From the IMG/VR virus record IMGVR_UViG_2718217859_000004, positions 1 to 38,838 of that record: a stretch of DNA of 38,838 nucleotides. The stretch is one strand, 5' to 3'. Position 1 is the stretch's first letter. Every line of letters starts with the position of its first letter. The translations under genes were made by a program, and so were the position numbers. Below the pieces are notes generated by a model, which worked only from the letters and a program-made list of their open reading frames with translations, was not told where the DNA came from and did no database searches. This DNA comes from a virus. Its lineage: Duplodnaviria; Heunggongvirae; Uroviricota; Caudoviricetes. Shown piece after piece: positions 1-8,438 of this stretch.

Positions 1-183
1 TGCCAGTATCCTTTTTGCGTCGGACGTAAACGGGCCAGCATTGAAGCAATGCATATCTCATTTGATGAATCTGGCTCATGCTTTATCTGACTAATGGCAT
101 CCTCAATAAAGTTTTTATCGCCAGTGATAACGCCAATTTCAAAACGGGTCTCAGGCGTAGTGGAATTGAGTAATAACGTTTCC
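1..183 (-). CDS. dicB: Cell-division inhibitor DicB-like protein, 5' part only (runs off window start)
   Basis: Minus-strand ATG at 181-183 with GAGG 8 nt upstream; translation METLLLNSTTPETRFEIGVITGDKNFIEDAISQIKHEPDSSNEICIASMLARLRPTQKGYW matches my recollection of Qin DicB (MKTLLPNVNTSEGCFEIGV...ICIVSMLARLR). Not in ORF track because truncated. Confidence 0.55.
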
Positions 184-195
184 ATTATCGCGTCC

Positions 196-1047
196 TCAAC
201 GAGTGAATTTAAGTAACTGCTCTACGGTCATATTTTTAATTGCGCCCGGATTTACAAGAGTCCATCCCTGTTTTTCCAGATAAAAGCGGAAGGTATCCAG
301 GGTGCAGACCATTGCGCCGTCAGGAACGGTTTCAGTGAATTCGACATTGCCGAATTTGTCGAAGTGAACAACCAGAGTGCGTCCATCACCCGGAATAATT
401 TTGTCAGCGGGTGGGGTATTATTCTGACGCAGCTCTGCCTCCATGCGGTCGAACTCAGCGATGTAGGCCTCTTTGAATGCGGCGGCTTTTTTGCCGGTGA
501 AGCCCATTACCAGGAAAACGAAGCCGTTTTTTGTGATCTGATATGCGTTATAGGTATTGCCACGGTGCTCAAATTTAACCCGCGAAAAGTTGCTGGTTAA
601 AAAGCGTTCAGAACATTCGAGGGATTCTATTTTTTGAACAACGTGGTGATGTTGCTTGCCAAAGAATTCTGCGATCGCAATAGACGTAGTGACAGCGCGA
701 CCGTTTTCGATGGTTACATCAGGGTGAGAAAGGGTAGGGATAGTAGCCATGATGGCAGCCTCGATAGTCAGTTTAAATAACTCACCACCAAGGTTTTCCA
801 CGACCATAAGGGTGGTGAGACGTACAGGGGTGGAAATACCGGCGACTACCGAAACCGGCCAGCCTTGCGGCTGCCCTGCACGCCCCACCATAATCTGAAT
901 GTGGCTGTGCATTACGCATAAAAAAACCGCCTGAGCGCGGTTATGCGCGGTAATCATCATCGGGTTTCCACGCCCGGCACCCGTTTTATGAGGTGCAGGT
1001 GCACTATAATTCCACCCGTTCTGGTTTTCAATAGCTACATTCAACAT
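196..1047 (-). CDS. Rha-family phage regulatory protein / antirepressor-like
   Basis: 283-aa ORF; residues ~115-200 (VTTSIAIAEFFGKQHHHVVQKIESLECSERFL...) resemble the Rha domain. 99 stop-free codons upstream of the domain argue for the long form; an alternative start is M100 at 748-750 (GAGG upstream). Confidence 0.6.
   Translation of the reverse strand: MLNVAIENQNGWNYSAPAPHKTGAGRGNPMMITAHNRAQAVFLCVMHSHIQIMVGRAGQPQGWPVSVVAGISTPVRLTTLMVVENLGGELFKLTIEAAIMATIPTLSHPDVTIENGRAVTTSIAIAEFFGKQHHHVVQKIESLECSERFLTSNFSRVKFEHRGNTYNAYQITKNGFVFLVMGFTGKKAAAFKEAYIAEFDRMEAELRQNNTPPADKIIPGDGRTLVVHFDKFGNVEFTETVPDGAMVCTLDTFRFYLEKQGWTLVNPGAIKNMTVEQLLKFTR
918..942 (-). terminator. Intrinsic-terminator-like hairpin inside the N-terminal part of the Rha-family ORF
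   Basis: Minus strand reads AACCGC-GCTCAG-GCGGTT followed by TTTTTTT (6-bp stem, 6-nt loop, U7). Confidence 0.35.
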
Positions 1048-1230
1048 TTTCTCTACCTTTCATCACCGAAGTGAACTTTGTTGATGCGGTGCCTGGTGCC
1101 TCCAGGTGACGTTAACCAGTTAACAATTAACGCCGGAGTATTTCACCCATAACCCTGCCACGAAGGACAATAGCTTTTTAACTGTTCCGCGTGCGCTCAG
1201 CCGCATTCACCGCATCACAAAATTCATTTT

Positions 1231-1352
1231 AAAAAGGGCGGACATCAGCCAGCAATGAAACTGATGCCGCCAAAAGGTAATCAACATGGGTTGTTGTAGC
1301 GGGGTTGTCACTCAGGCGTATGGTCAACCTGACAACCCGGTGTCACCAGTGG
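1231..1352 (-). ncRNA. dicF: DicF-like small RNA (3' hairpin plus U-run; 5' boundary uncertain)
   Basis: Minus strand ...CTGGTGAC...TTTTGGCGGCATCAGTTTCATTGCTGGCTGATGTCCGCCCTTTTT resembles recalled DicF (UUUCUGGUGACGUUUGGCGGUAUCAGUUUUACUCCGUGACUGCUCUGCCGCCCUUUUU); position between ydfA-like and dicB-like genes matches Qin order. Confidence 0.4.
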
Positions 1353-1616
1353 GGGTAAGGAAAACCCCGCCATACTTACCGCCGCGCCATTTCGCGGAGT
1401 GCCACAACCGGAAGCGCACGTTCGACGAAAATTTAACGACAGGCTATCTATGAACCATAAACCTCGCCGTGCGCTTTCGCGTTATGCCCTGACTTTTCAG
1501 GGATATATCCTTTCAGTAAACTGTCTGTGCCGGATTCTTATCCGTGTCCGGCGCACGACCACACGTGACAGCGTGTTGGTCTCCATTTTTAACCCAGAAC
1601 CTCAATGGAGGATAAA

Positions 1617-1826
1617 ATGCCAAACAAGCCAATACATCCGCTTATTGAAAAACAGATTGAATGCCTGGTTAATCAACTCAGGCAATCAGGGTTATTAAAA
1701 ACTCATTCAGAGCTAGGGCTCACAGAATCGGCATTCGACGATAAATTAAATAATGCGCTTTATAATGGCATCATTGATTACAATCGTGGCGCTGGTCGCC
1801 GTGGCCCTGCTGGTATAGCTTTGTAA
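1617..1826 (+). CDS. Hypothetical small protein (69 aa)
   Basis: ATG at 1617 with GGAGGA at 1607-1612; MPNKPIHPLIEKQIECLVNQLRQSGLL...; convergent with and abutting the 212-aa minus-strand gene; no family recognised. Confidence 0.4.
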   Translation: MPNKPIHPLIEKQIECLVNQLRQSGLLKTHSELGLTESAFDDKLNNALYNGIIDYNRGAGRRGPAGIAL

Positions 1827-2465
1827 TTACCAGGTAATCCATAGCGGATAGTGTTCAGCATAAATATAGCTATACACATCCAGGTTGTATTTGCGGTCTG
1901 TCCTTAGCAGGTCGCAAATACACGCCGCAGCTTCCAGGGCAGCAGCTTTGTTGCTGAATAACCATGTGGCAACATTCCAGCTATTCTCTGTATCCCATTC
2001 TTTCGCAAGCGCTGACACACTGAAGGAGCCGTTGGTGTTGCCATCAAATAACTCTGTTTCCAGATTTTTAAGTAATGCCTGATGAACGTTTGCCAGGTAT
2101 TCAGTCGGAATTTCGCCACGAATTCGGATAAGGTTGTCATAAACAAACATGTTTCCCGCATATGGCGATTTTTCTTTCTTGTTTTTTAAACCAGCATCAT
2201 GAGCAAACTGATCAATTTCTTCTTCCGTTGGTTTCGTATTGATGTTTTGCGTTATCGTTTCTGCAATGGGCTTTGCTTTATTTTCTACACAATGATTGTT
2301 TGTGAACGAATCTGAATACAGTCCGGTAAAAGAATTGCGGACATGATTTGATAAATTTCTGATGAACACTTTATCTACTAATATCATTGGGTTCCGCGCC
2401 AGTTGCGAGCGAATCACATCAGCGGCCATTTCCTGTATTGATATTGGTAAATCTTTAAATTCCAT
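1827..2465 (-). CDS. Hypothetical protein (212 aa) in the repressor operon
   Basis: Start at 2463-2465 with GAGG 7 nt upstream (alt. 2475-2477 overlapping the ydfA-like stop as ATGA); MEFKDLPISIQEMAADVIRSQLARNPMILVDKVF...; no recognisable domain; sits where ydfB/ydfC lie in Qin. Confidence 0.6.
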   Translation of the reverse strand: MEFKDLPISIQEMAADVIRSQLARNPMILVDKVFIRNLSNHVRNSFTGLYSDSFTNNHCVENKAKPIAETITQNINTKPTEEEIDQFAHDAGLKNKKEKSPYAGNMFVYDNLIRIRGEIPTEYLANVHQALLKNLETELFDGNTNGSFSVSALAKEWDTENSWNVATWLFSNKAAALEAAACICDLLRTDRKYNLDVYSYIYAEHYPLWITW

Positions 2466-2476
2466 CGTCAGCCTCA

Positions 2477-2629
2477 TCAGTCAGTGTTTCTTGCTAACCA
2501 GCGACGTGCGCCAGTTTCGGTTTTAAACGTTTTGCTTTTGGTATACGTCATCGCGGTGAACGTACCGTCCTGGTTGGGGAACACGCCACATACCAGAGAT
2601 TCGCTGTTGCCAAGATCGATAGTATCCAT
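2477..2629 (-). CDS. YdfA-like small protein (DUF1391-like, 50 aa)
   Basis: MDTIDLGNSESLVCGVFPNQDGTFTAMTYTKSKTFKTETGARRWLARNTD; GAGG 6 nt upstream of ATG at 2627-2629; immediately downstream of the dicA-like gene as ydfA is in Qin. Confidence 0.6.
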   Translation of the reverse strand: MDTIDLGNSESLVCGVFPNQDGTFTAMTYTKSKTFKTETGARRWLARNTD

Positions 2630-2833
2630 GCTGACCTCATTTCCCCTTAACGCCGGGGTAGCGGAACTGTTTGCTGAGAACACCGTGCGGTGTCTTGATG
2701 AGTAGAATTTAGAATAACCTAAGAATGCTGGTCAAGCTTTTTATGTAGAAAAACCTAAGTTTCTTGATGTGAAAAACACAAGTATTTGAAAGTTTGTGCT
2801 TTTTATTACAGAGAGTGGCGAAAAAAGGGGGGG

Positions 2834-3241
2834 TTATTTATTTGCGCTTCTTTTGCGAGCTTTGAGTAGTTCTTCAAAAAGTTTGTTGAAATTCTCAACT
2901 CGAGCACGCATCTCTGACAACAGAGCCTTTTGCTCTGACTCAGGCAGTGCGTCGAACAGTTGAAGCAACTCTTTTTGATCTTCTGTCAGATTGACTGGCT
3001 GATTATCTGGGATCGGTTCGCCTGGTTGCTTATCTTCATCTCCAAAAAGAAGCCAAGTCGGCGAGCACTGAAGCGCCTGGCTCAGTGCGAATAATCTCTT
3101 CCCCGCTGGCTGTGTTTCATCTCTTTCCCATTGAGAGATTGTTACGTGAGCCACTTTGACCAGCTTACCTAATGCGGCCTGAGACAGTTTTAATTTTTTA
3201 CGCCTATATAAGAGGCGAGCACCGAAGGTTTCGTTTTTCAT
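2834..3241 (-). CDS. dicA: HTH XRE-family prophage repressor, DicA-like (135 aa)
   Basis: N-terminal HTH (LKLSQAALGKLVKVAHVTISQWERDETQPAGKRLFALSQAL), C-terminal ...MRARVENFNKLFEELLKARKR; same length as DicA; divergent from a cro-like gene. Confidence 0.85.
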   Translation of the reverse strand: MKNETFGARLLYRRKKLKLSQAALGKLVKVAHVTISQWERDETQPAGKRLFALSQALQCSPTWLLFGDEDKQPGEPIPDNQPVNLTEDQKELLQLFDALPESEQKALLSEMRARVENFNKLFEELLKARKRSANK

Positions 3242-3317
3242 ATTAGGTAATTCTAATTTTTCTTGACTTAGGTTTCTCTACGATCTAGTTTCCTTAGGAA
3301 AATCTAAGGAGTTCGAT
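3242..3317. promoter_or_regulatory. Divergent promoter/operator region between dicA-like and dicC-like genes
   Basis: Repeated TTAGG/CCTAA half-sites: TTAGgtaattCTAA (3243-3256), TTGACTTAGG (3263-3272), perfect inverted repeat CCTTAG-gaaaat-CTAAGG (3292-3309) overlapping the dicC-like RBS. Confidence 0.6.
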
Positions 3318-3545
3318 ATGTTGAAAATTGATGCTATAGCGTTTTTTGGCAGCAAAACAAAGCTTGCCAATGCCGCAGGAGTTAGGCTGGCAAGCGTTGC
3401 TGCATGGGGGAAACTGGTTCCTGAAGGTCGCGCGATGCGTCTACAGGAGGCATCTGGCGGTGAGCTTCAGTATGATCCCAAAGTTTATGACGAATATCGT
3501 AAGACGAAGCGGGCAGGGCGGTTGAACAATGAAAATCACTCCTGA
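3318..3545 (+). CDS. dicC: Cro-like regulator, DicC/YdaS-like (75 aa)
   Basis: MLKIDAIAFFGSKTKLANAAGVRLASVAAWGKLVPEGRAMRLQEASGGELQYD...; AAGGAG RBS; divergent from repressor. Confidence 0.8.
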   Translation: MLKIDAIAFFGSKTKLANAAGVRLASVAAWGKLVPEGRAMRLQEASGGELQYDPKVYDEYRKTKRAGRLNNENHS

Positions 3546-7987: not shown

Positions 7988-8234
7988 CCGGATGCCGCGC
8001 CAGCGGCATGTAGGGGCAGCTCACAAAACGGAAAAAATTGTACGCTAAGCATCGCCTATGGGAATTCCCATATCGGGCGAAAACGGTTTGCTGTAACGGC
8101 AGAGTTAAGTAGAATTGCTGCGGGTGCTTGAGGCTATCTGCCTCGGGCATGAACACCAACGGCAGATAGAGAAAAGCCCCAGTTAACATTACGCGTCCTG
8201 CAAGACGCTTAACATTAATCTGAGGCCATATCTA

Positions 8235-8438
8235 TGCGACACATAGAGATTAGCCTCTTACGGACCGAAAGGTCAAGGAGAAGCAGGCTATGAAGCAGCA
8301 AAAGGCGATGCTAATCGCCCTGATCGTCATCTGTTTAACCGTCTTAGTGACGGCACTGGTAACGAGGAAAGACCTCTGCGAGGTACGAATCCGAACCGGC
8401 CAGACGGAGGTCGCTGTCTTCACAGCTTACGAACCTGA
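8235..8438 (+). CDS. mok-like overlapping reading frame (67 codons) of the hok locus
   Basis: ATG at 8235; ORF overlaps hok in another frame and ends 7 nt before the hok stop, as mok does in hok/sok loci. Confidence 0.4.

Follow-up and report, generated by a model that had tools for sequence, protein, structure and literature searches.

At the left end of the 38,838-nucleotide (nt) DNA stretch recorded as IMGVR_UViG_2718217859_000004 (Caudoviricetes; this whole stretch is called the window below), a DicF-like small RNA (sRNA) and a dicB-like cell-division inhibitor gene are separated by a Rha-family gene that is absent from the cryptic prophage Qin of Escherichia coli K-12. The first-pass annotation regarded this locus as a rearranged division-inhibition module, and the question is whether it is a unique rearrangement or an assembly of known parts. 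We found that it combines Qin dicBF with an antirepressor switch of the Gifsy-1/P1 type; IsrK, C4, Rha and DicB all score above the cut-offs of their families. On the minus strand, on which the locus is read throughout, positions 1-3241 are likely the DicA-repressed early-left ('dicB') operon of a lambdoid prophage, built of interchangeable modules, with a riboregulated antirepressor cassette between a variant DicF, here called class B, and dicB.

The identity of the operon is given by gene order. Across positions 1-3545, open reading frames (ORFs), Pfam matches and the K-12 annotation together reproduce the immunity and early-left region of Qin, the DicA-like, Cro-like, DUF1391 (YdfA) and DicB matches being ordered as in K-12 (Table 1). 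After the ydfA-like gene and genes belonging to families of unknown function come the class-B DicF, the dicF-dicB spacer, the antirepressor cassette and dicB. Compared with K-12 Qin (ydfABC-dicF-dicB-ydfD), the window shares the DicA-type repressor, the divergent Cro/DicC-type gene, ydfA, the DicF precursor, the spacer and dicB, and the DicF flanks and the spacer are ~85% identical. It differs in carrying genes of 216 and 73 amino acids (aa) in place of ydfB and ydfC, a DicF with changed loop and stem that lacks the 5' seed (a 10-nt gap) and scores 34 instead of 77 bits with Rfam, and a ~870-nt cassette 20 nt upstream of the dicB ATG, which Qin does not have. The whole window is a lambdoid prophage with 93-94% identity across ~20 kb to prophages of several E. 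coli strains, and for positions 1-2800 the top match (94.5%) comes from a food isolate. These E. coli prophage matches identify Escherichia or a close relative as the host.

The dicB-like gene leaving the window was recognized in the first-pass annotation, with a start at 181-183; the start codon is in fact at 185-183. Its frame is not disrupted, as 61 of the 62 codons lie intact inside the window and only the last codon and the stop fall outside. The product scores 87 bits against a cut-off of 27 with PF05358 and 113.7 against 100 with NCBIfam NF049927, follows dicF in the operon, and is only 54% identical to K-12 DicB. In another locus (L001), whose junction is 100% identical to that of the window, dicB is complete with 62 aa.

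The DicF-like hairpin and U-run proposed for the minus strand are present as a Rho-independent terminator with a 13-bp stem and five U residues at the 3' end of the element, and the hairpin folds at -24 kcal/mol (z = -4.4 against shuffled sequences). The default Rfam scan, with a gathering score of 48 bits, did not report DicF in the window. In a permissive scan with the DicF covariance model (RF00039), which had been suggested as a check, all 52 DicF positions were aligned to 1286-1236 at 34.1 bits (E = 2.2e-5, referring to a 1.2-kb search); the region is scored by the model but remains below the family threshold. For comparison, K-12 DicF scores 76.7 bits and two other copies of the window type score 34-36 bits. 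RefSeq annotation was of no help as evidence for DicF, since it lists none under the matches even in a K-12-derived strain and the absence of a label for a non-coding RNA is uninformative. The flanks are clearer: 140 nt upstream and 150 nt downstream of DicF align with K-12 Qin and other E. coli loci, and a 285-column alignment of the window with K-12 Qin and two other E. coli loci has a mean column identity of 87%. In these alignments the element occupies the DicF place of the dicB operon, preceded by the conserved precursor and followed by the conserved spacer. We regard the homology to DicF as secure on the basis of this synteny. With its score under the Rfam threshold and without the 5' seed, the element should be classed as a divergent DicF variant and not as a standard member.

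According to the first-pass annotation, an insertion within the RNA had shifted the DicF 5' box CTGGTGAC further upstream by ~60 nt. The octamer does exist at 1349-1342, on the correct strand and upstream of the hairpin. However, the 140 nt upstream of DicF align base for base with the K-12 dicF precursor, which leaves no place for an insertion, and the covariance model already fits every DicF position downstream of it. At the corresponding place in the conserved precursor, K-12 carries TTGAGGAC, and the octamer is found there in one of 15 class-B copies, that of the window alone. Its frequency in the window is also at chance level (three occurrences against 0.97 expected, a count reached by 7 of 100 shuffles). 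We take CTGGTGAC to be a non-conserved chance octamer, and a displaced 5' box is hardly credible.

The class-B element lacks the two pairing regions mapped in K-12 DicF. Standard DicF is made by RNase E and RNase III processing and depends on Hfq. K-12 DicF uses its 3' region to pair with the ftsZ ribosome-binding site and its 5' end to pair with xylR and pykA, and mutations that break the predicted DicF-ftsZ pairing abolish regulation (PMC5069750). In the window, the 10-nt gap relative to K-12 removes the canonical 5' box UUCUGGUGAC, the single-stranded 5' seed UUUCUGGUGAC is absent with CAUGUUGAUUACCU in its place, and the loop UCAUUGCU replaces the K-12 loop containing the anti-ftsZ CUCCG. 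Compensating changes give the 13-bp stem, which is more stable than that of K-12 (-21 versus -15.9 kcal/mol). With both experimentally defined K-12 pairing regions missing, canonical control of ftsZ is probably weakened or lost, a judgement based mainly on the missing nucleotides and not on energies. Since unrestricted RNAduplex on long RNAs returned meaningless long-loop duplexes, we used windowed duplexes and cofolding instead. The free-energy difference (ddG) on cofolding with the ftsZ translation-initiation region was -15.1 kcal/mol for K-12 DicF and -4.2 kcal/mol for the window DicF. The best local duplex of K-12 DicF covers the Shine-Dalgarno sequence (SD) of ftsZ (-29 to -7, -22.9 kcal/mol, an energy within one standard deviation of shuffles), whereas that of the window DicF misses it (-50 to -29, -17.5 kcal/mol).

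These results bear on whether class-B DicF might still repress ftsZ through the complementary stretches that remain at the start codon and at -29 to -22, so that a two-component division-inhibition module would remain. By inspection, CAUCAGUUUC can pair with GAAACU-AUG and UGUCCGCC with GGCGACA of ftsZ, and the element is always linked to a gene for an FtsZ inhibitor, dicB or kilR. However, class B has no central anti-SD block CUCCG, the 13-bp stem holds the residual blocks in paired form, cofolding is weaker than for K-12 DicF and the best local duplex misses the ribosome-binding site; in K-12, DicF mutations that disrupt the predicted pairing abolish regulation. We therefore hold residual control of ftsZ to be unlikely.

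The class-B element is not peculiar to the window. A pattern scan of viral contigs, together with fetched genomes, yielded 131 DicF-type hairpins, ~110 of the canonical form ('class A') and ~17 of the window type ('class B'). The window-type arm and hairpin were found in 80 of 5426 complete E. coli genomes (~1.5%) and were essentially absent from the isolated-phage collection. The sole isolated-phage match to the class-B query was in PP818812.1 (Actinobacillus phage vB_Apl-pPE4, 6022-6062), a partial match over query positions 4-43 with 92.7% identity, annotated within a hypothetical protein. A scan of one genome per species with a degenerate DicF hairpin pattern gave five loci (two in E. coli, one in Salmonella and two by chance) and carries little information on spread. 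The class-B hairpin, GGCGGCAUCAGUUU(C/A/U)AUUGCUGGCUGAUGUCCGCC, is nearly invariant over 13 distinct sequences with differing 5' arms and upstream contexts; the arms vary by substitutions and indels, with at least seven variants among the 13 copies, and in three copies the upstream sequence is unrelated.

One possible, though doubtful, reading of class B is that it only serves as the intrinsic terminator of the upstream genes, a DicF relic without function in trans. Both characterized pairing regions are gone, the stem has gained length and stability, the predictions show no convincing pairing with ftsZ, and the score is below the Rfam gathering value. A mere terminator should nevertheless drift compensatorily, and the loop and stem are near-invariant even in the copies with unrelated upstream sequence; in addition, the single-stranded 5' arm and 3' U-tail typical of Hfq-dependent sRNAs are kept, as is the position of DicF in the operon. 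Tentatively, class-B DicF may instead be a retargeted sRNA subfamily, with a constant terminator scaffold and a fast-diversifying 5' arm, which has given up ftsZ, xylR and pykA for other host or phage messenger RNAs (mRNAs). As a candidate target in the downstream operon RNA, the best match of the 5' arm (1271-1300) was at 1062-1033, which includes the SD-like GAAAGGUAG and AUG 1047 (-20.5 kcal/mol). We rejected this match as probably due to chance, as class-A loci with the same cassette lack the complementarity and stronger matches occur elsewhere in the window. Our literature searches on DicF variants and on DicF with Rha found no description of the class-B subclass or of the arrangement, and one published conservation survey was limited to dicF copies more than 99% identical to K-12 (PMC5069750). 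The subclass and the arrangement are both already in public genomes, unannotated or annotated only as coding sequences.

Downstream of DicF, the conserved spacer resembles STnc100 with a score below the gathering value, and the K-12 spacer (34.4 bits) is also sub-threshold. The spacer is nearly invariant across loci irrespective of whether dicB, kilR or the cassette follows, with the palindromic GTTAACTGGTTAAC and CACCTGGAGGCACCAGGCAC among its unchanging segments. Possible roles are those of an RNase III site or of an element that controls translation.

The ~870-nt segment between this spacer and dicB corresponds to the interposed Rha gene of the first-pass annotation, but it is a self-contained IsrK-C4-antirepressor cassette and not a plain ORF. 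Its sigma-70-like promoter places the predicted transcription start near 996, at the right distance for IsrK, which in turn is supported by its family score, an intrinsic terminator and the rha gene downstream. The C4-type antisense RNA also scores above its gathering value. Between the two RNAs and the rha leader, short sites recur: a' in the C4 loop, a1 in the IsrK linker and a2 abutting the SD of ATG 750, together with b', b1 and b2. Among nine distinct E. coli-type cassettes, a', a1 and a2 covary in five specificity types, found in IMG/VR loci that include L113, L042, L091, L059 and L051, and b', b1 and b2 covary in one locus (L113), giving two b-types overall. Cognate a'-a2 duplexes have energies of -17.7 to -21.6 kcal/mol and non-cognate ones mostly -2 to -10 kcal/mol. 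The cassette therefore shows the complementarity and covariation of loop and target that characterize C4/immI. A separate upstream ORF of the icd type was not found; the orf45-type AUG 891-889 is conserved and in frame with rha. L042 has a Rha gene cut short at 111 aa, and L091 carries the cassette in another context, where unrelated sequence supplies TTGACG...TATATT at the same distance from the IsrK start. The cassette RNA and the N-terminal part of Rha also occur in Stx2a-converting phages at ~89% identity, in another position.

The 283-aa Rha-family ORF of the first-pass annotation (196-1047) exists mechanically and contains a Phage_pRha domain, but it is a composite with RNA genes and not a simple gene. 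PGAP, Pfam and PHROGs annotate it as a two-domain Ash-Rha protein starting at ATG 1047, and such 'Rha/Ash' proteins have been treated as carrying an Ash domain of unknown function, with the Pfam name 'Ash' said to derive from a P4 protein (PMC8951638). The ORF is open in eight of nine cassette copies, Pfam Phage_ASH matches at 7.3e-20, PHROG 995 covers the full length, RefSeq annotates a single protein, and the SD-like GAAAGG precedes ATG 1047, a start that operon read-through transcripts would include. The Rha part is indeed a coding sequence, scoring 92.1 against 29.9 bits with PF09669 and 86.4 against 45.95 bits with TIGR02681. Its first 110 codons have variable columns at codon positions 1/2/3 of 36/33/76, whereas codons 1-99 of the long ORF, upstream of ATG 750, have 26/27/26, no third-position bias. 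These 99 codons overlie the cassette promoter, IsrK and C4, both RNAs being above their Rfam thresholds, and the substitutions are explained by three-way RNA covariation and alter residues non-conservatively. In L091 there is no ATG 1047, the sequence being unrelated up to the IsrK start, and in Gifsy-1 a stop before orf45 and a frameshift before anrP interrupt the equivalent frame. By contrast, the SD and ATG 750 are conserved across cassettes, including Gifsy-1. Since the coding signature is found only downstream of ATG 750, L091 lacks the N-terminus and the Gifsy-1 frame is interrupted, we read the real gene as encoding a 184-aa Rha-family protein from ATG 750, with putative antirepressor activity; a two-domain Ash-Rha protein is improbable. 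The PF10554 (Ash) hidden Markov model does match the stretch at 71.8 bits, but what it matches does not behave as a protein-coding region, and PHROGs 995, 821, 6928, 3960 and 29966 likewise match a translation of the promoter-IsrK-C4 stretch at 751-1047. The 'Ash domain' of Rha/Ash phage proteins may thus be a translated RNA locus. A 231-aa product from AUG 891, or leader translation that opens the ribosome-binding site, is possible.

The cassette resembles characterized immunity switches. The immI system of P1 and P7 consists of the c4 antisense RNA, icd and ant, in which loops a' and b' pair with upstream a1/b1 and with a2/b2 over the ribosome-binding site, and its specificity has diversified between P1 and P7 through covarying changes of loop and target. 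The window shares the two-loop antisense RNA, the duplicated targets and the covarying specificity, but it has no icd homologue, its antirepressor is Rha-type and not Ant1/2, and its upstream targets sit in a separately terminated sRNA, IsrK. In P4, the immunity RNA CI acts through transcription termination. By description, CI shares the principle of a processed small RNA pairing with flanking complementary sites, and CI with seqA and seqC has been cited as a structural analogue (PMC4825925).

A further parallel is Gifsy-1 of Salmonella (isrK-orf45(STnc1160)-anrP-isrJ; Hershko-Shalev et al. 2016). There, the operon is transcribed from the isrK promoter into a long RNA that is not translated by itself, and short IsrK, acting in trans, activates translation of orf45 and thereby of the antirepressor AnrP; the stable RNA STnc1160 derives from the C4 position and overlaps orf45 (PMC4825925). 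Both loci have IsrK, a ~25-nt spacer, a C4-type RNA, ~55 nt, and then the SD and ATG of the antirepressor gene, with both RNAs above their Rfam thresholds and the orf45 AUG at the same position. In the window, however, the orf45 frame is fused in frame to rha, whereas in Gifsy-1 it ends in an overlapping AUGA; IsrJ is lacking; and the cassette is found between dicF and dicB, within the early-left operon, and not downstream of the Q antiterminator gene. We found no homology between Rha and AnrP by BLASTP, and the RNA control unit alone is common to both loci.

Because the C4 loop, the IsrK decoy and the target over the rha ribosome-binding site covary in five types, we infer that the cassette works like the Gifsy-1 IsrK and P1 immI switches. 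By this analogy, transcription from the cassette promoter would start at ~996 and most transcripts would end at the IsrK terminator, giving the short sRNA, while read-through transcripts would carry the C4 antisense RNA and the rha mRNA. Pairing of C4 a'/b' with a2/b2 across the rha ribosome-binding site would leave the antirepressor untranslated. Abundant IsrK, with the target copies a1 and b1, would compete for C4 or refold the leader and so turn on translation of rha, whose product would then presumably inactivate a prophage repressor. At the level of the operon, the DicA-like repressor would hold transcription off. After derepression, the transcript would yield class-B DicF, presumably by processing, ending at its own strong terminator hairpin, and read-through transcripts would carry the spacer, the cassette and dicB, whose product would block assembly of the FtsZ ring.

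The junctions show how the cassette is placed. It spans ~200-1072, follows the conserved spacer and is bounded by an imperfect 16-nt direct repeat, TTCACTTCGGTGATGA on the left and TTCACT-CGTTGAGGA on the right (~195-209), with the Rha stop codon inside the conserved sequence upstream of dicB. The SD-like sequence and ATG 1047 at its left end may be left over from the start of the gene that first occupied this site. The first-pass annotation implied a one-off rearrangement. Among ~130 sampled loci, however, class-A or class-B DicF, with or without the cassette, is followed by dicB or kilR in all combinations. In Rac-type kilR modules of other E. coli prophages (L005), for example, class-B DicF and the spacer precede kilR, where the window carries dicB. 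The cassette is present in about ten of 110 informative loci, the exact combination of the window recurs in one other locus (L113), and the Rha-dicB junction is found in 51 of 5426 complete E. coli genomes. Since all module combinations occur and this junction recurs, the arrangement reflects recurrent module shuffling, an ordinary mosaic and not a unique rearrangement or a new system; either Qin lost the cassette or the lineage of the window gained it.

The coordinates of all features are collected in Table 1. The promoter-like site at 2735-2706 is probably the operon promoter. On the opposite strand, another promoter-like site (1589-1618) accompanies the 73-aa ORF. Elsewhere in the prophage, a Sok antitoxin RNA (Rfam RF01794, 101 bits) at 8122-8292 on the plus strand indicates a hok/sok-type toxin-antitoxin locus.

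Table 1 Features of the dicB operon and its surroundings in the window.
Feature	Position	Strand	Basis or remark
P22-Cro/DicC-like gene, divergent	3318-3545	+	Pfam
DicA-like helix-turn-helix repressor gene	2834-3241	-	HTH_3 4.3e-14
Promoter-like site upstream of ydfA-like gene	2735-2706	-	Promoter scan; same gene order as K-12 Qin
DUF1391/YdfA gene	2477-2683	-	Pfam
216-aa gene, PHROG 2151 (family of unknown function)	1827-2477	-	Stands for K-12 ydfB/ydfC between ydfA and dicF
73-aa ORF, PHROG 4274 (family of unknown function)	1605-1826	+	Antisense to operon
DicF precursor region, colinear with K-12 Qin, holding the octamer (1349-1342)	1287-1420	-	Alignment
Class-B DicF homologue: variable 5' arm, 13-bp terminator hairpin (1271-1237), 5-U run (1235-1231)	1231-1286	-	Rfam, terminator scan, alignment
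Conserved dicF-dicB spacer, STnc100-like	1077-1227	-	Rfam STnc100 42.3 bits (gathering score 47); alignment
Left cassette junction TTCACTTCGGTGATGA	1060-1075	-	Alignments with K-12 and kilR loci
First 99 codons of the 283-aa ORF, Pfam 'Ash' match	751-1047	-	Judged non-coding as a unit
Sigma-70-like promoter, TTGAAA, 17-nt spacer, TATAGT	1003-1031	-	Promoter scan
IsrK-type sRNA with decoy sites b1 and a1	920-996	-	Rfam RF01394 65 bits (gathering score 50); sub-threshold c4-a1b1 match
b1, GUGGAAA	971-965	-	
a1, GAUUACCG	955-948	-	Covaries with a'
IsrK intrinsic terminator and U-run	942-925	-	Terminator scan
C4-type antisense RNA	808-895	-	Rfam RF01695 79 bits (gathering score 45)
a', CGGUAGUC	851-844	-	
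b', UUUCCAC	836-830	-	
rha leader with C4 targets b2 and a2, a2 adjoining the SD	757-805	-	Complementarity to a'/b' and covariation
b2, GUGGAAA	801-795	-	
a2, GACUAUCG	769-762	-	
SD GAGG of rha	762-759	-	
rha start ATG	750-748	-	
Rha-family antirepressor/regulator coding sequence, 184 aa	196-750	-	Phage_pRha 3.4e-26; TIGR02681
dicB (cell-division inhibitor), ATG 185-183, 61/62 codons in window	1-185	-	Pfam DicB 6.7e-25

Several points weigh against our reading of the operon. What the sequence shows is homology, RNA-family membership, covariation, a coding signature and distribution; transcription, processing, regulation and protein activity are inferred. Class-B DicF does not reach the Rfam threshold and might be no more than a terminator. 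The prediction for ftsZ is a weak one: for both DicF classes, the energies of local duplexes fall inside the range of shuffled sequences, and class B retains two short ftsZ-complementary blocks, seen by inspection at -29 to -22 and around the AUG. Most cassettes keep the long ORF open, with an SD-like sequence before ATG 1047. Compared with Gifsy-1, the fusion of the orf45-type frame to rha means that translational coupling may differ, and the Rha-family protein is not homologous to AnrP (BLASTP E = 0.16).

For the DicF family, class B could have targets different from those of K-12 DicF, and a subclass that lacks both mapped pairing regions and is present in ~1.5% of complete E. coli genomes would escape annotation by the Rfam threshold. 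If retargeting is true, this sRNA module is exchanged among prophages and given new targets independently of which protein division inhibitor comes after it. For the Rha family, the N-terminal domain assigned to Rha by RefSeq, Pfam ('Ash') and PHROGs is the IsrK-C4 stretch, and the evidence presented here indicates that this stretch is RNA, which affects how the 'Rha/Ash' proteins of Stx and other phages are read. For the prophages themselves, an antirepressor switch inside a division-inhibitor operon could couple cross-prophage induction to the arrest of cell division.

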